From positions 1,987,630-2,051,629 of the forward strand of contig JADJEE010000012.1 of assembly GCA_016709225.1 (NCBI GenBank): DNA of 64,000 bases, given 5' to 3'. Source of the DNA: Deltaproteobacteria bacterium (GTDB lineage Bacteria; Myxococcota_A; Polyangia; Nannocystales; Nannocystaceae). The notes beneath the pieces were generated by a model that worked only from the letters and a program-made list of their open reading frames with translations, made no database searches and was not told where the DNA came from. This document shows, piece by piece, positions 19,061 to 58,861 of the stretch. The stretch's first letter is position 1. The number at the start of each line of letters is the position of its first letter. Both the position numbers and the translations under genes were made by a program.

Positions 19061-19117
19061 CGCTCGACGCACAAGGACGCGCACGCGACCTGAGCCTTTC
19101 TCCGGTCCCGAGAGGCC

Positions 19118-19146: not shown

Positions 19147-19155
19147 GTTGGTTGC

Positions 19156-20030: not shown

Positions 20031-20072
20031 TGCACTACGCATGTGGCTCAGGCAGCAAGGACATCCCACGCA

Positions 20073-20561: not shown

Positions 20562-20646
20562 TTGCAATCAGCGTAGTCAGCCACTACGGATCGCGTCTGC
20601 CAGAAGGCGCTGAAAGACGATCAGCACAGTGAACACACGGACAACA

Positions 20647-21210: not shown

Positions 21211-21248
21211 CACGTCCAAGGTCCTCATCGCGAATAGGCATATACGTC

Positions 21249-21731
21249 ATGGCACCAGTGCATCTTTCCAAAGGCCGGCCAGGTCGGGGACACCACTTTC
21301 AGCTTGTCTTGCTGTTCCTGTGCTCCGCAAGTTGCTCTTCGTTGGACCAAGGCGACGATAAGCCTATTCCGGCGACCCCGAACGATGACGACGGAGATAG
21401 CGAATCGGCCGACGACGATGAAGCCGTGGAACGGGCAGGGGCGTCCGATGAATTGGACACTTGCTGGTGGGTAGCATCACCGAATGGTGGCACGTCGGTC
21501 GGCACCGACTTTACGGTGAACTGCCCGGCGTCAAGACGGCCAATTGCAGGCCATTGCATGCACACCGGCTCCGCGCAGCTAACGGATTCACACCCGTTCG
21601 AAGCGAGCAATGCATCGAATCTCCCAGAAGCTGGGGAGTCCTGGTACTCGACTAGTAGCACGGCGGGATGGCGCTGCGCTTACGACGCTTCGGTGTCAGC
21701 ACAGATCGGCGTACTTTGTTGCGGATCATAG
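21249..21731 (+). CDS. Small secreted Cys-rich protein, paralogue 3 of 3. C-terminal VLCCGS.
   Basis: The listed start is a TTG that overlaps the stop of paralogue 2; the ATG at 21249 (MAPVHLSKGRPGRGHHFQLVLLFLCSASC…) gives a signal peptide. Blocks: TCWW, CPASRRPIAGHC, TAGWRCAY, VLCCGS*. Confidence 0.55.
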   Translation: MAPVHLSKGRPGRGHHFQLVLLFLCSASCSSLDQGDDKPIPATPNDDDGDSESADDDEAVERAGASDELDTCWWVASPNGGTSVGTDFTVNCPASRRPIAGHCMHTGSAQLTDSHPFEASNASNLPEAGESWYSTSSTAGWRCAYDASVSAQIGVLCCGS

Positions 21732-22203
21732 AAGGCTCGCTGTCCTGACTCTGGCGTTCGCAGGAACACATGATTTTGCGTTGGCGGGCGTCCGTGATAC
21801 GCTTGCCGTGACGCGCCGCGCGGGTGACTATGTGGCACGGGATCTCGTCCAGGCAGAGGTGCTCTGGATCGTCGGTGTGTTCGCGATCAGCGAACTGTGA
21901 TTGAGGCGGAGGTCGTCTCGTTCGTTCGCTCCCGGGTCGACTCCGCGGCTCCGCCATCGCGAACTCGCGGGTGTGCACGTTGGTGCGGTTGCCAGGTCGG
22001 GTCCACCTGGATCGACTTCGTGTGCTGATTCAGAGATTCGCGGGAGAAGCCGCTGCGCGCGCAATGCGCGAGCAGTGGTGCGCGATGGAGGCGAGGATGT
22101 CGTCGGCGCTCTTGGTCCAGGCGGACGGCTTCGGCTCGTCGTTGGTGCAGTGTCCGTGCGCCGGACCGCGTGCGTGGTTGAAGCAGCCGCGGGGCTTCCC
22201 GGT

Positions 22204-23810: not shown

Positions 23811-23898
23811 GCCGACGTCGACACCATAGCGGCGTCCGGCGCCGCGGCAACCGAAAATCATCGCACGCCCGCGTGTGGTTGCGCGCGGTCGCCCGGCA

Positions 23899-24267
23899 TC
23901 ACGCGCGTGCGTGCATCGGCGGCTCCCATCGACGTGACGCGCGAGCACGTGTGATGTCGATGCCCTCGAGTAGCATCGAGAGCTCGTGCACGTCGATCTC
24001 GACCGTCGACACCTCTTCGGCCACGCGCTGTGGAAACGTGAAAGTGCCCCGCTCGAGCCGCTTGTGCACGATCGTGAAGCCGCCGCGCGTGTACACCAGA
24101 AGCTTCACCTGGGTCTTGCGCCGGTTGAGGAAGACGAAGACGTGCCCGCTCAGCGGATCTTGCGCGAGCACGCTGCGAACGTCGGCACTCAGCCCGTCGA
24201 ACGATCGCCTCAAGCTCACCGGCGACGTCGCGACGTACACCTTCACTGCCCGCAGCAGCAGGATCAC
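23899..24267 (-). CDS. tnpB: IS66 Orf2 (TnpB)
   Basis: VILLLRAVKVYVATSPVSLRRSFDGLSADV…DPLSGHVFVFLNRRKTQVKLLVYTRGGFTIVHKRLERGTFTFP. GTG start that overlaps the TGA stop of tnpA (GTGA). Confidence 0.8.
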   Translation of the reverse strand: MILLLRAVKVYVATSPVSLRRSFDGLSADVRSVLAQDPLSGHVFVFLNRRKTQVKLLVYTRGGFTIVHKRLERGTFTFPQRVAEEVSTVEIDVHELSMLLEGIDITRARASRRWEPPMHARA

Positions 24268-24614
24268 GTCTTCGGCCTCAAGGTGATCATCTCCGAGACG
24301 AGTTGAGCGAGCCACTGTGCCGACACACGATCGGCGCGCACCTCGATCTCGACCTCGCCGACGTGCACCACGACCTCGGCCACCACCGCCGGCTCGGACG
24401 CCAGCATCGGGACGAACTTGACCGCGCCGCGCGTGCCCTCCGTCGCGACGCGCCGCTTCCACCACCGCAGCCTCCCGCTGCCGAGCTCATGCCGCCGCTC
24501 GAACTCCGCGAGCGTCAAACCACTGCGCTTCCACGCGCGAACTGCTGCGCGGCCATCGGCCGTCGTCCATCGCACCCCGCTCGCCGGCGCCGTCCACTCG
24601 CTCCCGCGTGACAT
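24264..24614 (-). CDS. tnpA: IS66 Orf1 (TnpA, HTH)
   Basis: …WKRSGLTLAEFERRHELGSGRLRWWKRR… pattern of IS66 Orf1. The ATG at rc 24614 lies inside the 73-bp duplicated segment. Confidence 0.7.
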   Translation of the reverse strand: MSRGSEWTAPASGVRWTTADGRAAVRAWKRSGLTLAEFERRHELGSGRLRWWKRRVATEGTRGAVKFVPMLASEPAVVAEVVVHVGEVEIEVRADRVSAQWLAQLVSEMITLRPKT

Positions 24615-24745
24615 GCCCGCGAGCGTGCACGATCACTGGGCGGCCACGCGGGTGCGCTCGGGCGGACGGACACCTCCCGCGTGACATGCCCGCGAGCGTG
24701 CACGATCACTGGCGGCCACGCGGGTGCGCTCGGGCGGACGGACAC
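24601..24745. repeat. Tandem direct duplication (73 + 72 bp) inside the IS66 right end. Each copy contains the tnpA ATG and ends with the IS terminus sequence ggcggacggacac.
   Basis: 24601-24673 and 24674-24745 are identical except for one G. The 13-mer ggcggacggacac therefore appears three times (24661, 24733 and the true terminus at 24799-24811). Confidence 0.85.
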
Positions 24746-24961
24746 GCGCGTGGCTGAACCGGGAAGCCCCGCGGCTGCGTCAACCACGCACGCGGTCCGG
24801 CGGACGGACACCCACGGTCGTCGAGCACGAGCGCGGTCGGTCGAGATGGTCGCGCTTCAGGGTTGTCGGTGGGCGGCCCAAAGCGGCGCGCGCCCAACGC
24901 GGCCGGCGTGCTATGAGCATGCTGGCTCGCGTGGGCGCGTCTCCGGGGTCAAGCGGCAGCG

Positions 24962-25372
24962 TCAGATTTGCTCGAGGCAGGAGGCCGGCGGAGAGAGTCT
25001 CTCGAACCCGAGCTCGCCACGTGCAGAGGTCAGCTCAGCCACGATGGTTGAGTGTGGGACTTGCGCCATGCGCCCTACCATAAAGCCACGGTAGTTACGC
25101 ACAGCTTCACGTGGGGTCAGTTGGCCGAGAGTGCCGGACGAGACCCACTCCGCCGTGAGGACGTCGATCGCGAGCGCGGTGGCCTCCGACTTCGGCGGCG
25201 CAGGCACGTACTGCGATCGGATCTCAGCCACGCGTCGGGCGTCGAGAGTGTAGGTGCCGACTCGAGCGACTGAGCAGTCCTCGCCCTCAGACGGACCGGG
25301 CGCCGGACCAGGAACCGGGCCTTTGCACGCCGGGCAGATCACGATCAGCAAGGTGAGGAAGTAGCGTTGCAT
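24962..25372 (-). CDS. Small secreted or lipoprotein (136 aa), tightly coupled downstream of the S8 protease. Possible cognate inhibitor or chaperone.
   Basis: MQRYFLTLLIVICPACKG signal peptide. AGGAGG sits 6 nt before the ATG, and the start is 10 nt after the protease stop. Lower GC. Confidence 0.6.
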   Translation of the reverse strand: MQRYFLTLLIVICPACKGPVPGPAPGPSEGEDCSVARVGTYTLDARRVAEIRSQYVPAPPKSEATALAIDVLTAEWVSSGTLGQLTPREAVRNYRGFMVGRMAQVPHSTIVAELTSARGELGFERLSPPASCLEQI

Positions 25373-25381
25373 GACATCCTC

Positions 25382-27868
25382 CTAATCACCGCCGCCATCA
25401 GGCTCATTGTCCACTTCAGACGTGGCCATGCAGAAGACATGAACAACCGCAGACCCCGAACTACTCACCCATTCTTTGTCGACGGTCACCTCGACGCACG
25501 TGTCCTCCACGTTGACCAGCGAGTCCTCGAACGCTACCATTTTCTTGTGATCGTGATCAGCGTTGATGCGCGTGTAGCTAGGAGTACCGTAGCCGACCGC
25601 GCAGGTGCCATTCCCCTGCTTCGGGCGCAGGCGCAGCTCGAGATCGATGCGACTGATGTTGTCCTTTCCGGACATGTCCTCGATCGCCATCATGACGCAC
25701 TTGACCTCTTCGGTGCCCGTTGCAACAGGGCCACCAAAGGCGATGTATTGCTGGTCTGCGGTACCACTGGTGAATGTGTAGGTGTTGTACGAGAGCGCAC
25801 CTCCCGCAAAGCTCGGCGAGCCGTTCGAAAGCAAGCGGAGCTTCGCTCGTCCGAGACCAAAGAGGTTGTCCGCACCCACGACGTTCTTCGTTCCCGAGCT
25901 GTTGCCCCGGTCACCCATGCCGAGCATCACCGTGTGCAAGCGTCCCACGTTCGAGATCCACGTTTGGCCATCGTTCAGACCCCAGTCCTTGACGAGAGCC
26001 GCCATCCCGGCAACAGCCGGCGCGGCAAAACTCGTACCGACCCACTGCCCGGTGCTCACGCAGCCGTTGGTGCCGGAGCCCGAGGTTACGTAGTTCACGT
26101 AGGCAGATGGCGCCGCGAGGTCTGCCATGGACAACGCCCCGCCCACCGTCGTTCCGTCCGGCGACTGGATAGACCCACCGCCGCGACTCGCGTAGGTGTC
26201 GTCGATATCCATGACCGAGTACAACGTGTCGTCCGTGCTGAGCCCGTTGACCGAGAAGGTCTTGGGAATGTCCGCAGGGCTGGACATGTTGCACGACGAT
26301 CCCGTCGTGCCGTTGTTCCCCGCCGATACCGCGATGAAGATGCCGTCGTCGAACGCGCCCTCGTAGGCGTCCTCGAGATCATAGCTCGAAGTCGCGTCAC
26401 AGGTGGCGTTCGGATACGAATCACCATCATTCCAGCCGTTGCTACTGCTGATGATGCTCGTGAGATAGCAACTACCCGGACCGGATGGCGTGAGCTCAAT
26501 GTCGATGCCCTGAAGGCAACTCGTTGACATCACGTGACGGCTCATCAGGGTGCTACCCTGGTGATCGAAGAACTGAACGACCGCCTCCTTTCCGTAGCCG
26601 CTCGCCGAGTTCTCCCACGAGGCACTGTGGTTCGTGGTGCTGTCGCAAACCGTCAAGCCTTGAGCCTGATCCTGGGTGTAGTCGCCGACAGCGATGGAGG
26701 ACACGACGGTGCCGTGGTTGACGTTCGAGGCCTCCGAGTAGTTGGCTTGTGAGTAGCTCTCACAGTACTCAACCCAACACTTCCACCGGCCAAGGAGCCG
26801 TTCAGTCTCGCATCCACTGTCGTCGTCAAAGAAGCACGCTTCGTCATTGAAGTGCCACTGCTCTTGGATGCCGATCGTGATTTGTCCCGCACCGTTTTCA
26901 GCGTTGAATCCGGCGTCGATGTACGTCTGAGCGTCAGTGTAGGAGCGCGAATCTCGATGGATTCCGATCGCGCGGCTGCCGTGCGACTGAAGACCAACGT
27001 CGTCGAGATCGATCTTCGTGATGTCTTCGCGCGCCTGCAGCTCCTCCAACAGGCCCTTCGAGACAGAAGCGCCTAGCCACCCCGTGGTCCAGTGATAGAC
27101 GCGGATCGTTCCGCCGCTTTCCACGATCTGTGCTGCCAATGACGACGACCGCTCCAAAAATGCTTCCTCTCGCTCGGCCAGCGCGACTTCGCGCTGTTCG
27201 ACCGCGGCAGCATACGTCTCTGCGCTCCACATCCCCACCTCAGGAAGTAGCGGAACATCCCAATCGGGGGCACCCCGCAACTTGATCAGCACGTCGAGGG
27301 AGTCATCCGGTCCAGCTTCCTCGGCCGCAGCGAGGAGGGTAGGACGCACCACGAGAGGCGCATCGTCGGATGGTTCCGCAGGCGGGTCGACGTTTGGAAC
27401 TCGAGTCACCCGATAGGTGTCGGTGCGCGTGCCTTCCGCGTCCACGACCGACGTTACCGTCTCTTCGTACAGGTACTCGTCCTGTAGGTGCGTATAGGGA
27501 CGCGAGACCTTCCGCCAGGTCTCAAGGTCCAGCTCACCGACCTCCGTTGACGAGACCATCTCGCCACTTTCGTTCTCTACGAGAACCTTCTCGTACACCA
27601 ACTCGCGTCCAGCATTAGCTGCGTCCGGATCTCGTACTTCGGTCTCGACATCGCCAGCACCGCCCGAGCTCCCTTCCTCAATCTCATCCGCGGGGAGGAC
27701 TTCCGAGCGTGGGCTATGCAGCCCTCCCTCGGCACTGTCGACGGGCGCTCGGTCATCGCAGGCGGGCGCGAGAGCCAATGTGGATAGAGCCCACATGCGA
27801 CGCAGGCACGTCCAGCGGTTCGCACGGGAATTGCCAATCGCAACAAGCTTCTTCGCCGAGGTTGACAT
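25382..27868 (-). CDS. Subtilisin-like serine protease (S8) with a long N-terminal pro-region, 829 aa
   Basis: His motif NVNHGTVVSSIAVG and Ser motif GTSFAAPAVAGMAALV. Signal peptide MSTSAKKLVAIGNSRANRWTCLRRMWALSTLALAPAC. GGAGA ribosome-binding site before the ATG at rc 27868. Lower GC than the backbone. Confidence 0.85.
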   Translation of the reverse strand: MSTSAKKLVAIGNSRANRWTCLRRMWALSTLALAPACDDRAPVDSAEGGLHSPRSEVLPADEIEEGSSGGAGDVETEVRDPDAANAGRELVYEKVLVENESGEMVSSTEVGELDLETWRKVSRPYTHLQDEYLYEETVTSVVDAEGTRTDTYRVTRVPNVDPPAEPSDDAPLVVRPTLLAAAEEAGPDDSLDVLIKLRGAPDWDVPLLPEVGMWSAETYAAAVEQREVALAEREEAFLERSSSLAAQIVESGGTIRVYHWTTGWLGASVSKGLLEELQAREDITKIDLDDVGLQSHGSRAIGIHRDSRSYTDAQTYIDAGFNAENGAGQITIGIQEQWHFNDEACFFDDDSGCETERLLGRWKCWVEYCESYSQANYSEASNVNHGTVVSSIAVGDYTQDQAQGLTVCDSTTNHSASWENSASGYGKEAVVQFFDHQGSTLMSRHVMSTSCLQGIDIELTPSGPGSCYLTSIISSSNGWNDGDSYPNATCDATSSYDLEDAYEGAFDDGIFIAVSAGNNGTTGSSCNMSSPADIPKTFSVNGLSTDDTLYSVMDIDDTYASRGGGSIQSPDGTTVGGALSMADLAAPSAYVNYVTSGSGTNGCVSTGQWVGTSFAAPAVAGMAALVKDWGLNDGQTWISNVGRLHTVMLGMGDRGNSSGTKNVVGADNLFGLGRAKLRLLSNGSPSFAGGALSYNTYTFTSGTADQQYIAFGGPVATGTEEVKCVMMAIEDMSGKDNISRIDLELRLRPKQGNGTCAVGYGTPSYTRINADHDHKKMVAFEDSLVNVEDTCVEVTVDKEWVSSSGSAVVHVFCMATSEVDNEPDGGGD

Positions 27869-28633
27869 GCACAATTCTCCAGACCGGTGTTTCGGTCGGT
27901 TCGTCGGTACAGATCGTTGCCACGCCGCGCACATGTCCGCGCGCGGTGGCCCAGATTGGCCAAAACTCTGCGGCCGAGCATACGGCCGATTGGGCAGATG
28001 TGTCAACCGATGATTTTGCGTCAGAAGTATGAGTTCTTTACTCGGCGTCTAGCCGGGTCTAGCCGGACAATTTGCGGCGTCGGCAATGCAACACGGTTGG
28101 CATCGTTGGGTGTCAAAGTGACGCTCTCCGGGAGAATAGTCGCGCGGTTTCCGTACGCTGCGCACCTTCGCCAGCGCTGAACCAAGGCGAGGTAAGGAAG
28201 AGACCAGCGTGATGCTTCAATAATTCGCCGGCGGCCGGGGAGCGAGCGCCACCGACCTTTCAGCTCCTGTGGCACGCTACGTCCGAAGTGGGATGGCAAC
28301 GTCGCAGACGTCGTGGACGACACCAGGCGGCTCACCGCGATCGCGATTGCCCCCCTCGTCTCTCGGCCGGTGCGCATTCACTGGTTGTGCAGCTCGGCAG
28401 GAAGTCAGTCAGAAGGAAGACAGCGAGCGCTCCGTGTAGAAGCTCACAAGTGGCCATTGGATCACTCGGCTTGGACCTCAACACCGGTTACCGGGGGCCT
28501 TGAGCTACTGCTCGTCTTGCCGTGGAGGCCGTTCCCCTGGGAGAGAGTTCGTGGGCGGTCGGGTAGATCGTCGAGTAGCGACATGAGGACCGAGGGCGCG
28601 CAGCCACCCGTGTCGATGTCGCGAATCTGTGAC

Positions 28634-28658
28634 AGGCGCACCAAGCGCAGCGCTTCGC
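28634..28658. promoter_or_regulatory. Perfect 11-bp inverted repeat (caagcgcagcg-ctt-cgctgcgcttg) about 50 bp upstream of the Cys-rich lipoprotein gene. Candidate operator.
   Basis: Seen directly in the sequence, inside an 840-bp lower-GC intergenic region between divergent genes. Confidence 0.3.
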
Positions 28659-28708
28659 TGCGCTTGGCATACCTGGACATGACGTGGCGGTGGTGGCATG
28701 CTCAGCGC

Positions 28709-29224
28709 ATGGCAAGATTGTGGTCGCATCCAGCGACTTCGTTTGTTTGTCTCCTATCACTGAGCTGTTCGGACCGGAAAGGCGGCGATGAGGGCGTGGC
28801 GTCTAACACCGCCTCAAGCTCGGACGGGGATGGCGAGAACGGGAACTCCGAGGGTTCTTCCACGACGAGCGAAGCACTCGGGGTCGAGGATTGCGAAGGT
28901 CTCCTTGTCGAGGCCGACTGCAACAACGCCATGCTCGCCGATGTTGGCCAATGCATGTGGGTCCCGAGATACGCACCGGCGCCCGGCGTGACAAGCTGCG
29001 GAGCACAAGACGCAACGGAGGCGTGCGTTGGAATCATCGGTAGTCAGCAGGGATGCGGGCTGTATTCTTGTCCTGGCGATGAAGGCGTCAATATCTACTA
29101 TCGACAAGCAGATGGCGGAATTGAACTGTTCGTCAGCCCTCTGTGCGGCCCGGAACCTGTCGGGGGGTGGATGGCGTGCCAGGCAAACATCCCCGAGTGT
29201 TCTTGTCCCTGCTCTGCTAATTAG
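28709..29224 (+). CDS. Cys-rich lipoprotein, paralogue A
   Basis: MARLWSHPATSFVCLLSLSCS signal peptide. Conserved core C.GI.G.QQGCGL..C…..LY.R…..E.F.SP.CGPEPVG.W.AC……ECSC.C shared with the next gene. Confidence 0.6.
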   Translation: MARLWSHPATSFVCLLSLSCSDRKGGDEGVASNTASSSDGDGENGNSEGSSTTSEALGVEDCEGLLVEADCNNAMLADVGQCMWVPRYAPAPGVTSCGAQDATEACVGIIGSQQGCGLYSCPGDEGVNIYYRQADGGIELFVSPLCGPEPVGGWMACQANIPECSCPCSAN

Positions 29225-29231
29225 GAGGCAT

Positions 29232-29666
29232 ATGAAGCGCGCATGCCTGATCCTGCATGTTACCTTGCTGGGAGTGACAGCCTGCACCCAGACTGAGCTT
29301 GAAGACTGCGAGAAGATTCAGCACGAGTCAAAATGTGAAGATGCCGATGTTGATGGCGCGGGTGCCTGTCATTGGGTCGAGGCCTATCGGCCGTCTGTGT
29401 CGGAAACCGCATGCGAAGTGGGCGAGCCGACCGGCTTGTGCGTCGGCATCGGAGGCACCCAACAGGGCTGCGGTCTCTTTGGGTGCGAGCCAGGGTCCGA
29501 AGATGAATCGGCGAACCTCTACTTCCGCCATGATGGCCCGCAGGTCGAAGTGTTCGGCAGCCCAGAGTGCGGCCCCGAGCCAGTCGGCGATTGGACCGCT
29601 TGCTCGAGCGCCGACGCGCCGGCCGAGTGTAGTTGTCTGTGCGGCGTCGCAGAGCCGCCCTCGTAG
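29232..29666 (+). CDS. Cys-rich lipoprotein, paralogue B
   Basis: AGGAGG ribosome-binding site. MKRACLILHVTLLGVTAC lipobox. Same Cys framework as paralogue A. Confidence 0.65.
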   Translation: MKRACLILHVTLLGVTACTQTELEDCEKIQHESKCEDADVDGAGACHWVEAYRPSVSETACEVGEPTGLCVGIGGTQQGCGLFGCEPGSEDESANLYFRHDGPQVEVFGSPECGPEPVGDWTACSSADAPAECSCLCGVAEPPS

Positions 29667-29730
29667 GGCCGGCGCCGCTAACTTACGATGCGGCATGTGT
29701 CAACGAGAATGAGATTTTTGGGTTGAGAGT

Positions 29731-30797
29731 TTAGTGAAGTCCGAGCTCGCTCTCCGAGCGATTCTCGGGTGGGTTGATCCAGACTGCCTTGGGGAGCGTG
29801 GGCACCTGCGGTGGGCCTGCGACGAAGCGCTCTGGGTTCTTCGCGAAGGCTTCGTTCATCACGAGCTGGCGCTGCGCGAGGACCTCGGTGGCGCGCCCGA
29901 AGAAGACGTCGGCGGGAGTGAGGCGAGCGATGCCGGAGTGCCGGTGCTCGTCGTTGTACCAGGCGAAGAAGCGCCGGCAGAAGTCGCGCGCGTGGTCGAA
30001 GCTCTCGAAGCGCTCCGGGAAATCTGGGTGCGACTTGAGGGTGTGGAACTCGGACTCGGAGTGCGGGTTGTCGTTGCTGACGCGCGGTCGGCTGAACGAC
30101 GCCGTGATCTCGAGGTCGCGCAGCAGCTGCTTCACAGTCTTGCCCCTGGGCACGGGCCCGCGGTCGGCGTGCAGCTTGAGCGTGCCCGGTTCGATCCCGT
30201 GGCGGTTGCACGCCTCGCGGATCAGCTTCGCCGCGAGCTCGCCGCTCTCCTCGTGGGCGAGCATCCAGCCCGGGTTGTAGCGGCTGAAGAGATCGATGAT
30301 CACGTACAGCGGGTAGTAGGTGTACTTCACCGGACCGCGCAGCCACGTCACGTCCCACGTCCAGACCTGGTTGGGTGCCGTGGCGATCAGTTCGGGTCGC
30401 GCGTACTTTGGGTGCCGGGCTTGATCGCGGCGCTCGCGGATCTCGTCCTGCAGCGCCAGAATCCGATACATCGTGCGGGGATGGCAGAGGTAGTGCTGCT
30501 CGTCGAGCAACGTGGCGTGCACGGTCGCCGGCGCCTTGTCGACGAAGCGCTCGGAGTGGAGCACCTCAAGCACGTTGGTCCGCTCGGCTTCGGAGAGCGC
30601 GCGTGAAGGTCGTCGACGTGGTCGGCGGGGGGCCATGCAGGGGCCGGCTGCCGCCAGCGGTACGCAGTGCTCCGCGGCACGCCGAGCGCCTCGCAGGCGA
30701 CCGCCACGCCGAGCTGGTCCGCGAGTTCGTCGACCGCTGCCTTCACGTCGGCTCCTCGGTGTCGTCGCTGTCCAGCCCCAACACCTCCGAGAGTTTT
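29731..30797 (-). CDS. IS3-family transposase OrfB (DDE integrase core), expressed as an OrfAB fusion by -1 frameshifting
   Basis: …VWTWDVTWLRGPVKYTYYPLYVIIDLFSRYNPGWMLA…HADRGPVP…WYNDEHRHSGIARLTP. The upstream part of the listed ORF is out-of-frame junk. Confidence 0.8.
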
Positions 30798-31150
30798 TTT
30801 TGGACCTCGATGATCTTCTCGGCCTTGCGCAGCTTCTCGCGCAGGCGCTCGTTGTCACGCCGCAGCTTCTCCAGCTCGGCCTGCTCCGCCGTCTGCTTCG
30901 GCTTGGGTCCGCGTTTGCGCTCCAACGCCTTCAACGTACCCTCGAGCCTCTGCCCGCGCCAGCTCGTGAGGTGCGACGAGTACAGGCCCTCTCGCCGCAG
31001 CAGTGCGCCCACTTCGCCCGGCTTCGTGCAGGCGTCGGCATCCTGCAGCACGCGCAGCTTGTACTCCTTCGTGAAGCGCCGCCGATGCGCTCTCTCTCGG
31101 GTCTCCGTCTCGACCTTCCGTGGGTTCGCGCTCGATGTCATTTCGTACAT
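30743..31150 (-). CDS. IS3-family transposase OrfA (HTH plus leucine zipper)
   Basis: MYEMTSSANPRKVETETRERAHRRRFTKEYKLRVLQ…LEKLRRDNERLREKLRKAEKIIEVQKKLSEVLG. Ends just after the slippery site. Confidence 0.8.
   Translation of the reverse strand: MYEMTSSANPRKVETETRERAHRRRFTKEYKLRVLQDADACTKPGEVGALLRREGLYSSHLTSWRGQRLEGTLKALERKRGPKPKQTAEQAELEKLRRDNERLREKLRKAEKIIEVQKKLSEVLGLDSDDTEEPT
30794..30801 (-). promoter_or_regulatory. Programmed -1 ribosomal frameshift site: A AAA AAA heptamer, seen as T8 on the plus strand
   Basis: OrfA frame reads …GTC CAA AAA AAA CTC…; the OrfB frame continues at -1. Confidence 0.6.
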
Positions 31151-50422: not shown

Positions 50423-50505
50423 CGCCGCGCTGCCACGCCGCGGCCCCTGGTGCAGGGCCCTCGCACGTCAGCGACGAGCGTGCGCACGACGACGCGTACC
50501 CGTGG

Positions 50506-51063
50506 TCACACCGGCTGCGCGTGCAGCAGCTTCATCAGCACCGTGTGATCGGTGTGATCGCGAACACCCGGGAGATGCAGCAGGCGCCCGAGCTTGCCGA
50601 GCCCATGGTTGTTGAGCAGCTCGAGCGAGTGCATCACGATGCCGCCGGGGTGCTGCGGGTTGCCGACGTCGATGTCGACCTCGATGGTCTCGCCCTCGGC
50701 CCAGCCGATCTGGACCGACATCACGGCGGTGGTCTGTCGCACCGCGTCGGTGATGCCGTGGTGCCGCGCGAAGCTGTCCCACTTGAAGGCATGCGTGCCC
50801 CGATCGGTGTTGTCGCGCACCGCCGCCACGAACTCGGCGCTGTAGTCGAAGAAGAGCCGGTCGTCGCGGATGCCCCCCACGCCGTCCCGCAGGCGCAGCA
50901 TCGCGACGCCCAGCTGCGCCCGCAGGACCAGCGCGAACGTGATGTCGAAGAACGCCGCGCGGCGATGCTTGGAGAGGCCATCGAACGCGGCGCCCGAGAT
51001 GCCCGAGTTGGAGAGGATCTGTCGCTGCCGCGGCCCGAGGCCGTCGAAGTTCGCGTGCGCCAT
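50506..51063 (-). CDS. Hypothetical protein, 185 aa
   Basis: Clean ATG with a GGGAG ribosome-binding site, coherent codon bias, no domain recognised. Lies downstream of the giant helicase gene. Confidence 0.5.
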   Translation of the reverse strand: MAHANFDGLGPRQRQILSNSGISGAAFDGLSKHRRAAFFDITFALVLRAQLGVAMLRLRDGVGGIRDDRLFFDYSAEFVAAVRDNTDRGTHAFKWDSFARHHGITDAVRQTTAVMSVQIGWAEGETIEVDIDVGNPQHPGGIVMHSLELLNNHGLGKLGRLLHLPGVRDHTDHTVLMKLLHAQPV

Positions 51064-51215: not shown

Positions 51216-54200
51216 CTAGCGGCGACGAGTCGCGCGCCGCTCGATCTCCGCCACGACGTCGGCACGGCGGCGCGACCAGGTCGCCGCATCGACGTGCATC
51301 ACATCCCATCCCCGCAGCCGCAGCACCGCAGGTCGGTGGAGATGGCGTTCGAAGGCGTCGGCTGCATCGGCGCCCTCGTCGGTGAGCACCGCGAGTACGA
51401 AGTCCGGCGTGTCGGCGGCGCCGATCGCCAGCGGTATGCGGAACTCCGACGCGCCCAGGCCCAGCTCGCAGCGCAGGCCGGTGCGCTCGAGCGCCAGCGC
51501 GATCTGGACCGCGAGCGGCACGTGCCCCTCGAACGAGGCACGCTCGCGCTCGCCCGCGGCGTTGCGTCGGCGCCCGCGCACGTCGTCGAGCACCTGCTGC
51601 GCCTGCAGACGCTGCCCCTTGCCGAGCAGGAATGCGAACTCGAGGTAGGCCTTGAACAGTCGCGGGCCATCGTGGGTGGCGTCACCGACGTGCAGCAACT
51701 CGGGGTCGAACGAGGCGACCACGTAGCACTCGGCCTTGGCGCGGGAGATCGCGACGTTGAGGCGCCGCTCGCCGCCGCGTTGCCCGAGCGGACCGAAGCG
51801 CGCCGGCACGTAGCGCTCGCTCGCGCCGCCCTTGCGGGTGCGCTCGACCGGCGCGTGGCCGAGCGAGAACAGGATGACGTCGCGCTCGTCGCCCTGCACC
51901 GACTCGAGGTTCTTCACGAACGGTCGTCGATCGATGGCATCGACGGTGGTGGCAGCCCGCCACGCCGCGGCGAATCCGTCGTCGGCGGCGACGCGGGCCT
52001 CGACCGCGTCGAGCACGGTCTGACGCTGGCGGAGGTTGAACGTGACGACCCCGATGGTCGGCGGCTCGCTGCGCGACAGCAGCTCGGCGATGAGCGCCAC
52101 GACGCGTTCGGCCTCGGGGCGATTGAGCCCGGCGTCGTACTGCCCGCCCTCCACCGCGATCCACCGCAGGGCCGGCGGCGCGGTGGGCCCCTGCGTCGAG
52201 GGGATGGTGAGCAGCTCGCCGTCGTACATCGCGTGGTTGGAGAACGCGATCAACGACTCGTCGCGGCAGCGGTAGTGCCACTGCAGGCCCGCGTGGGGAC
52301 AGCGCGCGCGCGCCAGCGCCAGCAACGACTCGGCCGCGAACACGTCGCGCACCGCGAGTTCCTCGGCCGAGCGATCTTCGTCGTCGGTGCTGCTGGTGCC
52401 GAGTTCGAAGTACGACGACGGCGGCATCTGCTTCTCGTCGCCAGCGATGACCACCCGCTGCGCCCGCAGCATCACCGGCAGACCCGACTCGACGGTGCAC
52501 TGCGAGGCCTCGTCGAAGATCACGAGGTCGAACAGCGGCTCGCGCGGGAACAGCACCGTCATGGTCTCGGGCGACAGCAACCAGCACGGCATCACATCGA
52601 GCAGGCCGACGTCGGCGAACTCGCGGACGAAGCGGCGCAGTGGCATCAAGCGGCTCTTCTTGCCGACCTCCTTGAGCAGCGACTCCTTGGCGCGCTGCGG
52701 GTCGCTCCGGCGCGCGCGATAGCCCGCGTTCGGCGTCTGCAGCAGCTCGGCCTGGTCGGCCCGAGCGACGATGGCAGCAACCTCGAGCGCTGCGATCTCC
52801 GGCTCGAGCCGCGTCATCGTCTCGATCGCACGGTCCGCGCGCTGGGCGGTCGCGATCGTGCCGAGATCGTCGATGCGTGGCTGCAGGTTGCGGGCGCGCT
52901 CCAGCTGCGCCGCCGCCCATGCCCGCGCGATCGACTCGCGCCAGTCGGTGAAGGGGCGACCCGCGAGCGCCGCGGCCACGCGATCGAGCAACGCCGGCGC
53001 GGCCGTCATCGTCTCGCACGCCAGCGCGGTCCAGCCGTCGAGCTCGCGCAGCCGCGTCGCGTCGCGGGCGAGCCGGTCCGCGAGCTCGCGTAGTGCCGTG
53101 GCGTCGTCGCGCAGGACCCACGGGAACACCCCTGCGATGGCCGCCAGCGCCTGCAGCAGCCGCTGTTGCGCCTCGGACTGCGCGAGACGGTGCGCCGCCC
53201 ACTCGTCGGTGGCGGCGCGCTCGAGCGAGATGCCGATCGCCGCCAGCGTCGTGGCCGCGGCACGCACCGGGGCCGCGAGTCCGGCCAGCAGCTGCAAGCG
53301 CTCGATCGCCGCGCCCGCGCTGGCGGCATCACCTTGCGCCCGCGCCGACAGTCCGAGCCGCTCGAACAGCGCCCGCGCTTGCGCCCACGCGCGCGCGGCG
53401 TGCAGCCGCGATTGCAGCCGCGCGAGAAACTCGGCATCGAAGCCGGCCGCCGCCTGCTCGGGCCACAGTCGCACCAGCGACGCGCGCACCTCGGCCCGCG
53501 TGCGCCACCACAGCGGCGAGACGATCCGCGTCCAGCGACCGGCGAACGACTGCAGCACCGTCACCGCGCGCTCGGCGGGATCGTCGACCACGAGCCCGCC
53601 GGGGCTCCACTGCGCCAGCGCCTGCGACTCGCCGCGCCAGCGCTCCACGAGCGACGCGACACCGTCGTCGCCGTGCAGGCACAGCGCGGTGAGCAACGCG
53701 ATGTCGTCGGGGCCCTGGCAGGCCGCACGCGCGGCGTGCAGCGCGAGCAGACCCTCGCGTGCGCGCGCCAACGCGTCGCGATCGACCGGCGCCGGCGCCA
53801 GCGCAGCGTCGAAGGCGTCCGCGTGGGCGATGGCGTCGCGAAGCTGCACGCGCATCGCCGTGAGCGCCGCGTCGTCGTACCCGCGCAGCGAGCCGCGCGC
53901 GAGCCCCCGCTGGCGCCACCACGCGCTCGGGGCCCACAGGTCCTGGTGCGGATGCAGCCGCTCGACCAGCTCGAGCAGTCGCAGCAGGCGTTCGCGATCG
54001 ATACCCGCGAGCGCGGGATCGACGACGTGGGGCTCGCCGCTGGCGACCATCGTGATGAGCTGGCCGACGCACAGGCCGGCGTCGTCGATCCGCTGCGCGA
54101 GCAGGTTGCGATCGGCCTCGAGCGCGGCCTTGGCCTGCTCGTACTCCATGCGCAGCAGCTCGAGGCGGCCCGGCGGCGAGGCCGAAGGTCGCTTGGCCTC

Positions 54201-56948
54201 GAGGCGCACCCGCACCCGCTCGAACAACGGCTTGCGGTCCTCGTGCACGTCGTGCACCACCGCGAGGTACTGTCCGAGGCCCCGAACCTCGAGTCGCTGC
54301 CCGACCACGTCGAGCGCCGCACGCTTCTCGGCGACCACCGCCACCCGCTCGCCGCGACGCAGCGCGTCGGCCACCAGATTGACGATGAGCTGGCTCTTGC
54401 CGGTCCCCGGCGGGCCATCGACGACCGTCACGCGGTGGCTGCGACACTGCGCCAGCACGGCGCGCTGGCTGGGATCGGCCGCGACCACCGGCCAGCCCGG
54501 CGCACCCGGGTCGGTCACCGCGGGCTCACCGACCACGCCGGTCGTGGCGGGCAGCAACGCGGCCGCCGAGGCCAGCACGGTGGCGGGCTCCTTCGCGAGG
54601 TCGGCGAGCTCGCGCAGCAGCGCGTCGTAGTCTTGCAGGAGATCGGAGCTCGACTGGGGGAACAACCCCAACAGCGCGCACTCCTCGATCGACAGCCGCG
54701 GCGGGGCCTGATCGAGGTCGCGGTCGCGATCGCCAAACGGCACCAATGCGGTCGACTCCACCGCCACCGGCACGCCGATCTCGCGCAGCTTCGCGAGCAT
54801 GGCTTCGACCCCGCGCGCGGGATCGGCCACAATGTCGTCGAGCTCGCGTCCGAGTTCGTCGGGGAAGGCGAGCGTGGCCTTGTTGAAGAGCAGGCGCAAC
54901 AGCGACTGGTTTGCGATCGGCTCCTCGTCGCTGCGCCGGCGCAGCGAGAAGCCCCGCGCACCGCGACCGTCACGCTCGAGCTCGACCGGGAACAGCACCA
55001 GCGGTGCTCGCACGCCGTAGCCGACCTCGGTCACGCCGCGCGGCGCGATGTTGCCGACCAACACGGGATAGCCCACGTACAGCTCGTTGGCGCCGGTCTC
55101 CTCGATGCGATCACGGACCTCGCGGTGCAGCTCTCGCAGCTGCGCGGAGCAGGCCTCCGCGGCGTCGTGTCGGCCGGCGTCGTCGGCGGTCACCAACACC
55201 GCCTCACGGCCGCCGCGCACCAAGGTCAGCGTGCGCTCGGCGGTGCCGGGGCGGATCGCATCGAGCGCGACGAGATCGAAGCAGCGCCCGCGCACGAGCC
55301 GACGCAGCCGCACCGAGGGACTGCGTCCGTCGCCGGAGATCAGCTCGTCGCGCAGCCGCGTGATGGCGTCCGTCAGCGCCCGCCTCGAGGCGTCGATCGG
55401 CGCCGCCGCGGCCGATGGCGGCTGACGGGTCGCCACCAGCCGCACCGGCTGGTCGAGCGGCGCACCGTGCAGTGGCGGGCTGACCTCGATGCCGCGATCA
55501 CGGAACAGCTGCGCGAGGGGTGCGAGGGCCTCGGGCGTGGTCGCCTGCACGCCGGCGAGCCGCAGCAGACGACGCGGTGCGATCGACGACTCACCGCGAC
55601 GCTCGACGCTGTCGCACAGCGCGGCGAGGGCGTCGGCAACCTCGTGCTTGCGCACCGGCAGCGGGATCGCGACCTGCTCGAGCAGCTCGAGCTCGAGCGG
55701 CGACTGCATCGCGGCGATCGCAGGGCGGATCCAGCGGCGGAACTCGCCGCCGTGCCCGAGCGCCTCACCGATCGCGAGGATCGTCTGCACCTCGCGCGCG
55801 TCGACCACGTCGTCGGCACCCATCACGTGGGTGAGCAGCAAGAACAGGCTGCGCACGAGATCCGGCCCGCCGGCACGGACCATGCCGCCGGTCTCGTAGA
55901 AGCGGGCGAGCGCGACCTCGGGATCGAGCAACTCCGACCAGCCGGGGATGGTGCGACCGAAGGCGTCCTCGATCGCGTCGAGCTCCTCGGGCGAGATCAC
56001 GCCATCGGCAGCGGCGACCAGCACCGCGCACGCGAGCGCGCACTCGCCCAGGAACGCCGGCGGCTCGTCGCGCGCGTCGAAGTCGACGTCGACGCGGCTC
56101 GAACCCAGCGCGCGCGCGATCACGGCATCGACCTCGGCGAGGCTGCGCGTGCTCGCGCCGCGCCCCGTCAGGCGCTGGTACACATCGCTCTCCGAGAACA
56201 GCCACAGCGCCCAGGCGCGCAGGCTGTGCTCGGGGTGCGTGGTCGCGAGCGCGGCTTCACCGGCCGCTAGCGTGCGATCCATGAGATCTCGCGCCTGCTC
56301 GAGGTAGGCCGCGGTGTCCCACGTCAACGCGTCGCCGGGCAGGCCCGTGGTCGCGATCATCTCGAGCCGCAGCGCTGCGTCGAGATCCTGGCACGCGAGC
56401 AGGCCGAAGCGATCGGCCGTGATCTCGCGCGCGACCGCGAGTCGACGCGCGGCCTCGGCCTGGGCGCTCGGCAACACCCCCGCCTCGGCCAGCTGCAGCC
56501 CCGCCAGCGCGGTGGCCCCGAGCTCCGTCCAAGGCCCGTGCGCCAGCCAATGACCCAGCTCGTGCCCGAACAACGCCACGGCGGCACCGTCGTCGAGCAG
56601 CGTCAACATGCGCCCCTGGATCTCGAGCAGGATCGGCGACTGCACGAAGTGCAGCGCCGCGTTCTCGCGGCCGCTCGACTGGTAGAGCTCGAGCGCGCCA
56701 TCGATCGCCAGGGCCGCTCGCGCCGCCTCGGCCTGGGCATGGGCGGCGGGTGCCATCGTCGGCGACAGCGCGAGCGCGTCGGCGTGCAGGCGGCGACGAA
56801 TCGCCTCGGCATCACGCGGCACCAGCGAGGCCCGCTGCACCGCGAAGCCGGGGAAGCCGTCGAGCGCGGCGGCCAGCTGCCGCTCCAGCGAGAACCGCAC
56901 CGCCTCGACGTCGAGACCGACCAAGCTCGTGCGCGTCGTGGCCGTCAC
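51216..56948 (-). CDS. Giant (1910-aa) multidomain protein. N-terminal M48-like HExxH metallopeptidase motif, a TerB-like domain, a DUF4011-like region, an SF1 Upf1/DNA2-type helicase core (AAA_11/AAA_12), and a C-terminal DUF3320/REase-like (DUF559-type) nuclease fold.
   Basis: FGHELGHWLAHG…REITADRFG (HExxH with a downstream E..ADRF, as in M48). TerB-like …VISPEELDAIEDAFG…VMGADDVVDAREVQTILAIGEALG. Walker A VVDGPPGTGKSQLIV, Walker B VIFDEASQ, LESVQGDERDVILFSL, RRLNVAISRAKAECYVV. C-terminal …CELGLGASEFRIPLAIGAADTPDFVLAVLTDEG… GTG start overlaps the TGA of the upstream permease. Confidence 0.85.
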   Translation of the reverse strand: MTATTRTSLVGLDVEAVRFSLERQLAAALDGFPGFAVQRASLVPRDAEAIRRRLHADALALSPTMAPAAHAQAEAARAALAIDGALELYQSSGRENAALHFVQSPILLEIQGRMLTLLDDGAAVALFGHELGHWLAHGPWTELGATALAGLQLAEAGVLPSAQAEAARRLAVAREITADRFGLLACQDLDAALRLEMIATTGLPGDALTWDTAAYLEQARDLMDRTLAAGEAALATTHPEHSLRAWALWLFSESDVYQRLTGRGASTRSLAEVDAVIARALGSSRVDVDFDARDEPPAFLGECALACAVLVAAADGVISPEELDAIEDAFGRTIPGWSELLDPEVALARFYETGGMVRAGGPDLVRSLFLLLTHVMGADDVVDAREVQTILAIGEALGHGGEFRRWIRPAIAAMQSPLELELLEQVAIPLPVRKHEVADALAALCDSVERRGESSIAPRRLLRLAGVQATTPEALAPLAQLFRDRGIEVSPPLHGAPLDQPVRLVATRQPPSAAAAPIDASRRALTDAITRLRDELISGDGRSPSVRLRRLVRGRCFDLVALDAIRPGTAERTLTLVRGGREAVLVTADDAGRHDAAEACSAQLRELHREVRDRIEETGANELYVGYPVLVGNIAPRGVTEVGYGVRAPLVLFPVELERDGRGARGFSLRRRSDEEPIANQSLLRLLFNKATLAFPDELGRELDDIVADPARGVEAMLAKLREIGVPVAVESTALVPFGDRDRDLDQAPPRLSIEECALLGLFPQSSSDLLQDYDALLRELADLAKEPATVLASAAALLPATTGVVGEPAVTDPGAPGWPVVAADPSQRAVLAQCRSHRVTVVDGPPGTGKSQLIVNLVADALRRGERVAVVAEKRAALDVVGQRLEVRGLGQYLAVVHDVHEDRKPLFERVRVRLEAKRPSASPPGRLELLRMEYEQAKAALEADRNLLAQRIDDAGLCVGQLITMVASGEPHVVDPALAGIDRERLLRLLELVERLHPHQDLWAPSAWWRQRGLARGSLRGYDDAALTAMRVQLRDAIAHADAFDAALAPAPVDRDALARAREGLLALHAARAACQGPDDIALLTALCLHGDDGVASLVERWRGESQALAQWSPGGLVVDDPAERAVTVLQSFAGRWTRIVSPLWWRTRAEVRASLVRLWPEQAAAGFDAEFLARLQSRLHAARAWAQARALFERLGLSARAQGDAASAGAAIERLQLLAGLAAPVRAAATTLAAIGISLERAATDEWAAHRLAQSEAQQRLLQALAAIAGVFPWVLRDDATALRELADRLARDATRLRELDGWTALACETMTAAPALLDRVAAALAGRPFTDWRESIARAWAAAQLERARNLQPRIDDLGTIATAQRADRAIETMTRLEPEIAALEVAAIVARADQAELLQTPNAGYRARRSDPQRAKESLLKEVGKKSRLMPLRRFVREFADVGLLDVMPCWLLSPETMTVLFPREPLFDLVIFDEASQCTVESGLPVMLRAQRVVIAGDEKQMPPSSYFELGTSSTDDEDRSAEELAVRDVFAAESLLALARARCPHAGLQWHYRCRDESLIAFSNHAMYDGELLTIPSTQGPTAPPALRWIAVEGGQYDAGLNRPEAERVVALIAELLSRSEPPTIGVVTFNLRQRQTVLDAVEARVAADDGFAAAWRAATTVDAIDRRPFVKNLESVQGDERDVILFSLGHAPVERTRKGGASERYVPARFGPLGQRGGERRLNVAISRAKAECYVVASFDPELLHVGDATHDGPRLFKAYLEFAFLLGKGQRLQAQQVLDDVRGRRRNAAGERERASFEGHVPLAVQIALALERTGLRCELGLGASEFRIPLAIGAADTPDFVLAVLTDEGADAADAFERHLHRPAVLRLRGWDVMHVDAATWSRRRADVVAEIERRATRRR

Positions 56949-58819
56949 AGGATCACTCGTACGCCGCCGAGGGTCTCGATCTGATGCGGGAAGCGGTCGC
57001 CCGGCGTGCTGATGAACATGTAGTTCTTCGGCACCGACAAGGTCTGCGACAGCACCTCGATCATCTCGGGCGTGAAGGTGCCCTCCACCGCCACGAAGTC
57101 GATGCGGATCTGCGGATACAGGTGATCGATGCGCGCGAGGTCCTCGCCGAGGTTGGGCGGTGGCTCACCGCCGGGCGCGAAGACGTGCACCACGATCATG
57201 CGCGTGGTCTGCTCGTTCTCCAGCACGTACTGCACCGCACGGTTGAGCTGCGCGGGGCTGTCGCCCTTGGTGAAGTAGATGATCGATCGACTGTTGATGT
57301 GATCGATCGCGCCACGCACGCTGGTGCCGACCCACTCGTTCAGCCGCCGTAGGCCGTCGATCAACGAGCGCGTGGCCGACAGCGCCGCACGCATCAGCAC
57401 GACCCGCAGGAACATCACGGCCACGATGCCCGCGGCCGAGAAGAAGTAGATCGCGAACACCCGGATGTTCTCGGGCGACAGCAACAGGTTGCCGAGCAAG
57501 CCCACCAGCACGGCGATGAGCGCGACGCTCACCGCCAGCCAACTCGCCCGGATGTCACGCGGCAGGCGTGCGCGCTTGCTCTTGAGCAACATGTTGCCGA
57601 TGGCGAACAGCGCCATCACGCACAGGAACGAGATCGTGTAGACACCGGCCAGCACCTCCACGTCGCCCGCAGTTGCCGCGAGGATCGAGCAACACACCGC
57701 GCAGAAGCCGATGATGATCCAGTGGTTGGTCTTGCGCAGCTCGTTCTCCCGCAGCAACACCTGCGGTAGGCAGCGATCGAGGCTCATCCGCCGCACCAGG
57801 CCGGTGACGCCGACGTACGAGGTGAGCACCGCGCCGGACAGCACCAGCACCGCGTCGACGCTGACCCACGTGCGCAGCACAGGACCCATGGCCACGTCGC
57901 CCATCTGCGCGAGCATGTCGGGTGGCACCGTGGTGATGACGACCAGCGGCAACAAGCCCAGACTCAACAGCGAGATCAGCGGGTTGAAGGTCGCGACCGC
58001 GAGCCACATGTTGCGCAGGGTCTTGGGAAAGACCCCGGGCTTCTGCTCCTCGATGAAGTTGGCCGAGCTCTCGAAGCCGGAGATCCCGAGCATCGCCGCG
58101 GCGAAGCCGTAGAACAGCGCGTGTGAGAGCCCTCCCGGCGGCGGCTCGCCCCAGTTCGCCGACAGCAGCGAGGGGTCGCGGATGATGGTGATGATGCCGG
58201 CGATGCACAGCACCGTCAGCGTCACGATGTGGAAGAAGAAGATCGCGACGGCGACGACCGCCGACTCGCTGATGCCGACGACGTTCAGGAACGCGAACAG
58301 CCCCAGCAACCCGATCGTGGCCCAGAACACGTCGAGTCCGGCCACGAGGTTGTGGGCGTAGTGCATCGCCTCGCCGGCGCTGATGACCGCAGTCGCGACG
58401 TACGACAGCAGCGTGAGCACGGCCGCACCCGCGGCGAGCTTCTTGTTGGTGGTGTTGAGCAACACGGTGTACGTGCCACCGTTGAGGGGCAGCGCGCTGC
58501 CGACCTCGGCGTAGACCGTGCGGAACAGGTACAACACCGCCGCGACCACCGCGAGCACGATCGGCGCGTAGCGCCCGGCCTGGGCCGCGCACAGTGCCGA
58601 GACGTAGAGGCAGCTCGAGGTGATGTCGTTGCCGCAGATCGCAGTCGACGCCCACGTGCCCAGGTAGTTCTTGTGGGGCTGGTCGAGGTGCTTGACCGCG
58701 ACCTTGGAGGTGTCCAGCCCCGTCAGTCGCGTGGCGGTGCCCCAGCCCGCGAAATCCCACGACTCGGAGGTGGATGCAGCGGGATCGTCGGCCATGGGCA
58801 GGCCGGCACTGTATCGCAT
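56945..58819 (-). CDS. APC-superfamily amino-acid/polyamine permease with a C-terminal cytoplasmic extension
   Basis: About 12 TM helices of APC-type sequence (…GSALPLNGGTYTVLLNTTNKKLAAGAAVLTLLSYV…), then a soluble tail of about 150 aa. The stop overlaps the helicase start (GTGA). Confidence 0.8.
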   Translation of the reverse strand: MRYSAGLPMADDPAASTSESWDFAGWGTATRLTGLDTSKVAVKHLDQPHKNYLGTWASTAICGNDITSSCLYVSALCAAQAGRYAPIVLAVVAAVLYLFRTVYAEVGSALPLNGGTYTVLLNTTNKKLAAGAAVLTLLSYVATAVISAGEAMHYAHNLVAGLDVFWATIGLLGLFAFLNVVGISESAVVAVAIFFFHIVTLTVLCIAGIITIIRDPSLLSANWGEPPPGGLSHALFYGFAAAMLGISGFESSANFIEEQKPGVFPKTLRNMWLAVATFNPLISLLSLGLLPLVVITTVPPDMLAQMGDVAMGPVLRTWVSVDAVLVLSGAVLTSYVGVTGLVRRMSLDRCLPQVLLRENELRKTNHWIIIGFCAVCCSILAATAGDVEVLAGVYTISFLCVMALFAIGNMLLKSKRARLPRDIRASWLAVSVALIAVLVGLLGNLLLSPENIRVFAIYFFSAAGIVAVMFLRVVLMRAALSATRSLIDGLRRLNEWVGTSVRGAIDHINSRSIIYFTKGDSPAQLNRAVQYVLENEQTTRMIVVHVFAPGGEPPPNLGEDLARIDHLYPQIRIDFVAVEGTFTPEMIEVLSQTLSVPKNYMFISTPGDRFPHQIETLGGVRVIL

Positions 58820-58861
58820 CGCGTTCGCACGCGCGATCGCGCCCGCCCACGTGCGAACACG

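Follow-up and report, generated by a model that had tools for sequence, protein, structure and literature searches.

Hhe and ProA are single-protein helicases with a DUF4011 domain. Both are validated anti-phage factors, and their mechanism is poorly understood. Shango is a validated anti-phage system in which a TerB protein, an ATPase and a DEAD/DEAH helicase are encoded by three genes (PMC10250203). Here, we analyzed a giant gene of the myxobacterial assembly GCA_016709225.1. It lies in a stretch of 64,000 nucleotides (nt) of contig JADJEE010000012.1 (positions 1,987,630 to 2,051,629), which we call the window. Its product belongs to the DUF4011 / Upf1-like superfamily 1B (SF1B) helicase / MTES_1575 superfamily. 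It is a stand-alone, soluble and chromosomally encoded protein, and its family is conserved and uncharacterised. Compared with Hhe and ProA, this family appears to have kept the motor and swapped the head for a conserved peptidase-TerB unit, while the nuclease site seems to have decayed. Our literature search found no paper on this architecture.

The giant gene and its start codon

The gene occupies positions 51216-56948 of the minus strand. It starts with GTG, ends with TGA and encodes 1910 amino acids (aa). The product is identical to GenBank MBK6922346.1, which is named 'DUF4011 domain-containing protein [Deltaproteobacteria bacterium]'. The GC content at third codon positions (GC3) is 0.89, similar to the neighbouring genes, and the region has about 72% GC. 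Because of this GC3 and of at least 217 homologues, of which those listed are mostly full-length, the open reading frame (ORF) is a real gene and not a chance frame in GC-rich DNA.

An earlier examination of the same DNA, made from the letters alone (the sequence-only reading), had described a single 1910-aa ORF. We recovered it, and the quoted motifs that we located stand where they were reported. More precisely, GHELGH is at residue 128 (within FGHELGHWLAHG) and REITADR, followed by F, is at 174 (the quoted E..ADRF). The helicase motifs GPPGTGKS, FDEASQ, QGDERD (which opens the quoted QGDERDVILFS) and VAISRAK are at 845, 1478, 1685 and 1732, respectively. The protein has no transmembrane segments or signal sequence. 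A hydrophobic stretch at residues 296-322 was considered as a membrane span and rejected; these residues form the first helix in the bundle of the TerB domain.

The GTG at 56948 is the earliest start possible in this frame. A conserved LDxExVRF block occupies residues 12-19 (LDxExVRF..E, 12-22). The N-termini of the homologues lie about 8-12 residues before it in the alignment of 46 homologues. The first ATG encodes M65. Ahead of it, at least 90% of the aligned sequences retain R18, E22, R51 and R52, and L54 is invariant. Since these residues are conserved, we exclude a downstream ATG start, which would have removed the overlap with the upstream permease gene and which the sequence-only reading had named as a way to refute it. 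The sole alternative is a TTG at codon 9. It would give a gap of 20 nt to the permease gene and no overlap.

The peptidase-TerB head

Residues 1-285 (56094-56948, minus strand) comprise N-terminal helices and an M48-like gluzincin peptidase domain. The HELGH zinc-binding motif spans residues 129-133 (56550-56564, minus strand). The complete set of peptidase motifs consists of this HExxH, H137, E175-x-x-A-D179-R180 and H238-P-E240-H241. The match to Peptidase_M48 (PF01435, residues 114-247) is marginal in Pfam, with E 2e-4 and 21.6 bits versus a cut-off of 20.3. H129, E130, H133 and E175 are kept in 45 of the 46 homologues, and one family member (P0031) has no HExxH. The domain has the characters of the M48 gluzincin fold. 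An M48-like zinc peptidase had been called from the letters alone; the Pfam match just above cut-off and the conserved residues agree with it, and the motif residues of the peptidase site are intact.

The known M48 metallopeptidases 3c37, BepA, HtpX and Ste24/ZMPSTE24 share with the giant protein the gluzincin fold, the HExxH, the glutamate in ExxADR and the HPxH-R motif. However, the giant protein is predicted to be cytoplasmic, it is fused to a helicase and lacks transmembrane segments, and the similarity is marginal (E 2e-4).

A TerB-like helical domain follows at residues 295-415 (55704-56066, minus strand). It is assigned from the PF05099 records of homologues, a fold match and conserved acidic residues. 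Two motifs of the D-G-x5-E / ADG-x5-E type are present, in which D315, E322, D379 and E386 are invariant. The Pfam TerB model (PF05099) gives no match at E < 0.1 on the query itself. Of the 120 listed homologues, 19 have a record of it, as do stand-alone M48+TerB relatives. With the family profile, the TerB-like structures 2ou3 (E 0.058) and 2h5n (E 0.31, residues 312-409) were matched in PDB. A Foldseek search with the structural model gave 2h5n as the best match (probability 1.0, target TM-score 0.60). The TerB-like call of the sequence-only reading is borne out by these matches and by the four invariant acidic residues, and the domain thus retains its conserved acidic residues. A small alpha/beta linker domain at residues 430-515 (55404-55661, minus strand) separates this head from the rest of the protein.

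The DUF4011 region and the helicase core

The DUF4011 region covers residues 520-800 (54549-55391, minus strand). Its conserved blocks are SGDGRSPS, EETGAxDLYLGYP, VRAPLVLYPV and LFPQSSSDLLQDYD. The DUF4011 model (PF13195) matches residues 597-687 with E 1.6e-12 and 48.2 bits versus a cut-off of 22.2.

The first part of helicase domain 1A, at residues 820-905 (54234-54491, minus strand), contains the Walker A motif GPPGTGKS (845-852). It matches AAA_11, AAA_30 and AAA_19, and also IGHMBP2 and Upf1. An insertion of about 535 aa, rich in Ala, Leu and Arg, comes next (residues 906-1440; 52629-54233, minus strand). It lies between Walker A at 845 and motif II at 1479 and divides the first RecA-like domain. 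It gives weak matches to the WzzE helical hairpin. The remaining SF1B core, at residues 1441-1760 (51669-52628, minus strand), matches AAA_11 and AAA_12 as well as Sen1 and DNA2. Its motifs are DEASQ (1479-1483), GDEKQMPP (1503-1510), QGDERD (1685-1690), R1728 and R1736.

In Pfam, AAA_11, AAA_30 and AAA_19 are found at 825-888 plus 1472-1510 and AAA_12 at 1550-1746 (59.8 bits for AAA_11, 54.4 for AAA_12). In PDB, the profile matches are IGHMBP2, Sen1, DNA2, Upf1 and Aquarius. Every helicase motif that we checked is invariant in the 46 homologues. A DUF4011 domain with an Upf1/DNA2-type SF1 helicase had been proposed for this protein; the PF13195, AAA_11/AAA_12 and PDB matches and the invariant motifs uphold that proposal, and the motifs of the SF1B ATPase-helicase core are intact. 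The helicase motifs match those of IGHMBP2, Sen1, DNA2 and Upf1 in both RecA-like halves. In contrast with these proteins, the first RecA-like domain (RecA1) is split by the long insertion and the accessory domains are unrelated.

The degenerate C-terminal domain

The protein ends in an MTES_1575 / DUF559-type fold of the restriction endonuclease (REase) kind with degenerate catalytic positions (residues 1805-1905; 51234-51536, minus strand). The MTES_1575 model (PF18741) matches residues 1815-1903 with E 7e-9 and 36 bits, under its cut-off of 38.2. In hhalign, the C-terminus of the family was matched to the C-terminal domains of 61 other DUF4011-family proteins with 99.8% probability.

We took the canonical catalytic positions from Bacillus-type members, which show PFE...IDLA...GIECDG. 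The first canonical E is replaced by A, K, R or similar residues and is acidic in 0 of 46 homologues. The canonical D is P in 41 of the 46, and the second canonical E is L, M, F, V or I in all of them. Of the four positions, only the last D survives, as D1857, which is D or E in 43/46. So, a DUF559/REase-like ending, as the sequence-only reading had it, holds for the fold but not for the catalytic residues. Because nearly all members have other residues at three of the four canonical acidic positions, a canonical nuclease is unlikely. The domain is probably dead as a nuclease, and the label 'helicase plus nuclease' seems doubtful for this protein.

Comparison with Hhe, ProA and Shango

In PADLOC, the giant protein matches PDC-S37 (E 1e-158, residues 821-1904) and Hhe (E 1e-74). 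The scores with the NCBIfam models are far under the cut-offs. ProA (NF058533) reaches 553.7 bits versus an equivalog cut-off of 1500, with query residues 821-1906 aligned to profile positions 647-1703 of 1903. Likewise, Hhe (NF042953) reaches 353 bits versus a cut-off of 2000, with 1276-1901 aligned to 1092-1675 of 1797.

With ProA/PDC-S37, the giant protein shares an SF1B helicase with a large insertion, a C-terminal domain of the MTES_1575 type and a total length of about 1900 aa. However, about 650 N-terminal profile positions are unmatched, so the head of ProA differs, and the bit score amounts to roughly a third of the cut-off. The C-terminal ~200 positions of the ProA profile have no counterpart in the query either. 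Our literature search found no primary source for ProA / PDC-S37. The likeness to Hhe consists of DUF4011, an Upf1-like helicase and a Vsr/DUF559-type C-terminal domain in a single gene. The matched part of Hhe, in contrast, has no M48 or TerB domain, and the nuclease positions of the query are degenerate. We considered the giant protein as an orthologue of ProA or Hhe and rejected it, as both scores are well under the equivalog cut-offs. Because of these scores, we place it in a separate branch of the DUF4011 superfamily.

Other DUF4011-branch proteins, from Cupriavidus (L054) and a verrucomicrobial metagenome-assembled genome (MAG; L079), score 671-699 bits for ProA, which is also below the cut-off. 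A contig search with a profile of the family alignment gave, among the matches listed, mostly other DUF4011 branches. No M48 motifs were found in L054, L060, L063, L064, L069, L072 and L079, loci that seem to cover query residues ~47-1904.

Like the giant protein, Shango, which acts against phages, brings together a TerB-like domain and a helicase. On the other hand, it is encoded by three genes and its helicase is of the DEAD/DEAH-box type, whereas the giant protein has an SF1B helicase and consists of one polypeptide. The PADLOC matches listed for the giant protein include no Shango model, and its gene has no conserved neighbours.

Distribution of the family and its modules

The family search (E <= 1e-10) matched at least 217 proteins, and the 120 best were listed. 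These are mostly 1900-2100 aa long, with 98-100% query coverage and 41-99% identity. Among the matches listed, most come from Myxococcota: MAGs of Nannocystales, Sandaracinaceae and Kofleriaceae, Polyangium fumosum and Nannocystis sp. None of the 120 best matches comes from a Myxococcus-type genome. A few members are Beta- or Gammaproteobacteria (Denitratisoma oestradiolicum, Endothiovibrio diazotrophicus, Cognaticolwellia, Propionivibrio and other gammaproteobacterial MAGs). Their identities are comparable to those between myxobacterial families. The named members are annotated as AAA or DUF4011 domain proteins only. Two members of about 2240 aa (P0065, from Nannocystis sp. ILAH1, and P0070) have an extra PF00929 (DEDD-type) exonuclease domain before the peptidase head.

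We searched exhaustively with residues 81-400 and found 882 relatives at E <= 0.001. They include a family of stand-alone proteins of ~350-490 aa, among them P0132, P0171, P0177, P0179 and P0184. They share the N-terminal helix and the M48-like domain with the giant protein. Behind these come a linker, which is disordered and rich in proline, and an acidic C-terminus of the form DPLAEDE..LLDRFAELE. The peptidase domain of the giant protein and these stand-alone proteins form a clade of their own. One such paralogue (L088, 8001-9143) lies directly 3' of dnaX-ybaB-recR. We considered a link to recR and rejected it; it is a single occurrence that is not repeated in the stand-alone loci of the metagenome scan.

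Other relatives of ~415 aa (for example P0286 and P0292) contain both M48 and TerB, with 25-30% identity across the two domains. They have the same two-domain order as the giant head. They differ in having no helicase and in lying next to a TerB-only gene of 145 aa. This two-gene cassette, with the TerB-only gene first, occurs in two independent contexts (L151, 6553-8266; L152, 2425-4186; L153, 4293-6054). The sequence-only reading took the added peptidase and TerB for an unusual fusion. It is not a one-off, since more than 200 family members conserve the combination and the ~415-aa proteins have it on its own. From these stand-alone proteins, we conclude that the head is a module that already existed and was joined to a DUF4011 helicase body.

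In a Propionivibrio MAG (L154, 8001-14175), the giant gene was called as two overlapping ORFs of 547 and 1523 aa. We regard it as a probable frameshift of the assembly rather than a natural split, because nrdD on the same contig is also fragmented.

The permease and the genomic neighbourhood

The gene upstream of the giant gene encodes an APC-family permease of 624 aa (56945-58819, minus strand). It is a neighbour with no functional part in our proposal. The protein, with about nine hydrophobic segments, matches AA_permease_2 (E 9e-55). Its C-terminus of ~170 residues (56948-57457, minus strand) is a cytoplasmic extension without Pfam match. In GenBank (MBK6922347.1), the start is placed 8 codons after the first ATG, which gives 616 aa instead of 624.

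At the junction (...atcctGTGAcggcc), the GTG start of the giant gene and the TGA stop of the permease gene share 4 nt. The overlap had been noticed from the letters and is present. The 4-nt GTGA/ATGA overlap is the most frequent type of same-strand gene overlap in bacteria, so by itself it is unremarkable. The adjacency was seen only in a metagenome contig that is 98% identical at the DNA level (L001). The permease is not next to the giant gene at the loci of P0003, P0006, P0012, P0031, P0042 and the Denitratisoma member P0090. In these relatives (42-69% identical), the neighbours are all different. In the 86%-identical relative L149, the DNA homology runs from the giant gene to the last 64 nt of the permease gene and then jumps to ~85 nt around the permease start (2589-2760 versus window 56948-58839). 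About 1.7 kb of the permease interior are deleted, with 5' and 3' stubs left. The giant gene is intact there (1910 codons, same GTG), and the frame of the permease remnant ends 5 nt before the GTG. The earlier idea that co-translation pairs a transporter with a nucleic-acid enzyme fails on this evidence. The permease overlap is incidental, a matter of local operon compaction only.

Downstream, after a gap of 152 nt, lies an orphan ORF of 185 aa (50506-51063, minus strand). This hypothetical gene had been reported to follow the giant gene. It does exist, but beyond the interval described at that time, and it is not conserved. It has no Pfam or PADLOC match and was found elsewhere only in L001. 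The scan for promoters and terminators between it and the giant gene found nothing. Just past this ORF, in an interval of ~55 nt (~50429-50483), L001 carries 3.6 kb (16467-20103) that are absent from the window. The extra segment encodes a P-type cation ATPase and a DUF6544 gene. This indel beside the giant gene is recent.

The flanks of the giant gene are completely different even at 84% DNA identity. The permease (at loci with an upstream flank), the 185-aa gene, recR, ybaB and dnaX are in none of the giant-carrying metagenome loci. An all-against-all comparison of the flanking ORFs of 18 loci found no conserved partner gene; beyond close relatives, nothing but generic Ser/Thr kinases recurred. 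At the locus in the window, the PSD, HXXSHH, permease and giant genes lie closely spaced on the same strand.

In Denitratisoma oestradiolicum (L087, 14187-17494), AbiEii and DUF6088 genes (an AbiE toxin-antitoxin pair) come directly after the giant gene, and a radical-SAM/TRAM gene comes next. This arrangement resembles, by description only, the flank of the defence hotspot cDHS1 of P. aeruginosa, reported as a 'large DUF4011 gene plus radical SAM', in which the DUF4011 gene is the core gene PA14_RS11765 (PMC10250203).

Possible role of the giant protein

Our best explanation, held tentatively, is that the giant protein is a stand-alone motor that tracks nucleic acid, with a TerB-gated peptidase as its output and a defence-type role. 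The SF1B motor would load on single-stranded nucleic acid and move 5' to 3', by analogy with IGHMBP2, Sen1, DNA2 and Upf1. The degenerate REase fold and DUF4011 may recognise nucleic acid or a structure. The TerB domain would gate the peptidase, and the peptidase, rather than a nuclease, would be the catalytic output. Its substrates might be proteins that the motor encounters along its nucleic-acid track, or a cellular target. The role would be a defence-type surveillance against foreign or aberrant nucleic acid. Such surveillance is the most likely biological role because the nearest relatives with a name are anti-phage proteins, the family is spread patchily across phyla, its flanks vary and Shango is a precedent for TerB with a helicase. 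The AbiE pair beside the Denitratisoma gene also speaks for it.

A more specific and more doubtful form of this explanation is a helicase-guided protease. The SF1B translocase would bring the TerB-gated M48 peptidase to proteins on nucleic acid, and the ancestral nuclease would be retired to binding. Possible targets are proteins of phage replication or packaging, or else DNA-protein crosslinks and roadblocks. If true, it would be an output mode not described for helicases of the Hhe/ProA type and a possible bacterial counterpart of helicase-assisted crosslink proteolysis. More generally, if the peptidase is the output, the family offers a natural experiment on how such motors couple the sensing of nucleic acid to an effector. 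TerB, also present in Shango, would gain a defined partner enzyme, and the M48 peptidases would be extended to a cytoplasmic role linked to nucleic acid. If the protein is instead an ordinary defence-type or repair helicase, hundreds of giants named 'DUF4011 domain-containing' would gain a better annotation, and a spurious transporter link would be removed.

Several observations weigh against a defence motor with a peptidase output. The ProA and Hhe scores are far below their cut-offs, and the match is confined to the C-terminal ~1100 residues. We infer the gating by TerB, and likewise the activity and the substrate of the peptidase. PADLOC gave no match for the neighbours of the giant gene in the window, and there is no obvious defence island. 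In most contexts, the gene is surrounded by housekeeping genes (secY/adk and nrd at some loci) or by unrelated ones. Its GC and GC3 are the same as those of the surrounding genome. The N-terminal module had 0 matches in 72,556 plasmids and 50,697 phage genomes, unlike the helicase body, which matches 515 plasmid records. A PSD/PSCyt plus HXXSHH gene pair is near the giant gene in three relatives, which hints at vertical inheritance within that lineage. Finally, E1858, E1867 and H1871 are conserved alongside D1857 (43-46 of 46), and they might form a non-canonical nuclease site.

Much of this would fit a role in genome maintenance and not in immunity. The SF1B motor would then work on host DNA or RNA, and the M48-like peptidase would clear roadblocks or DNA-protein crosslinks, in a logic like that of SPRTN/Wss1. 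A chromosomal gene of native composition, a head absent from the plasmid and phage collections, the PSD/HXXSHH synteny and the housekeeping neighbours are consistent with it. So are an intact peptidase alongside a degenerate nuclease and the stand-alone paralogue directly after dnaX-ybaB-recR. However, this last adjacency is not repeated, and a patchy family with no Myxococcus-type genome in the 120 best matches would be an uncommon pattern for a core repair gene. The nearest relatives with a name are anti-phage proteins, and the flanks are highly variable. We consider genome maintenance unlikely on balance. It is still to be taken seriously as a rival, given a chromosomal gene of native composition that lies outside recognisable defence islands. 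The conserved acidic residues lead to another explanation, a classical helicase-nuclease like Hhe. Here, the re-arranged site D1857/E1858/E1867/H1871 would cut DNA, and the M48-TerB head would be a sensor, a regulator or a self-processing domain. The PF18741 match, the hhalign homology at 99.8% and the conservation of the acidic residues and the histidine (43-46 of 46) speak for it, as do the Hhe/ProA relatives annotated as helicase-nuclease defence proteins. Nevertheless, the canonical E, D and E (of PFE, IDLA and IECD) have become A/K/R, P and L in nearly all members. The peptidase residues (45/46) are equally or more constrained, which is not expected of a purely structural domain. Moreover, P0065 and P0070 add a PF00929 exonuclease, as if the nuclease were supplied from elsewhere. 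This makes a nuclease of the Hhe kind improbable. A functional module of permease and nucleic-acid enzyme, joined by translational coupling (for example in a stress response), has the 4-nt overlap and the tight same-strand spacing of the PSD, HXXSHH, permease and giant genes in its favour. It is scarcely credible with an adjacency confined to the 98%-identical contig, an internally deleted permease beside an intact giant gene in the 86% relative, its absence from the other giant loci examined and no recurring neighbour family in the 18 loci.

Other features of the window

Scans for tRNA genes and Rfam families in the window gave only a tRNA-Arg at 42958. Positions 20000-31000 form a patch of lower GC (0.59-0.62) that appears to be rich in insertion sequences and unrelated to the giant gene. 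It contains an IS66-family transposase (22204-23850, minus strand) and an rve-type integrase (29731-30858, minus strand), next to a gene similar to S8 subtilases.

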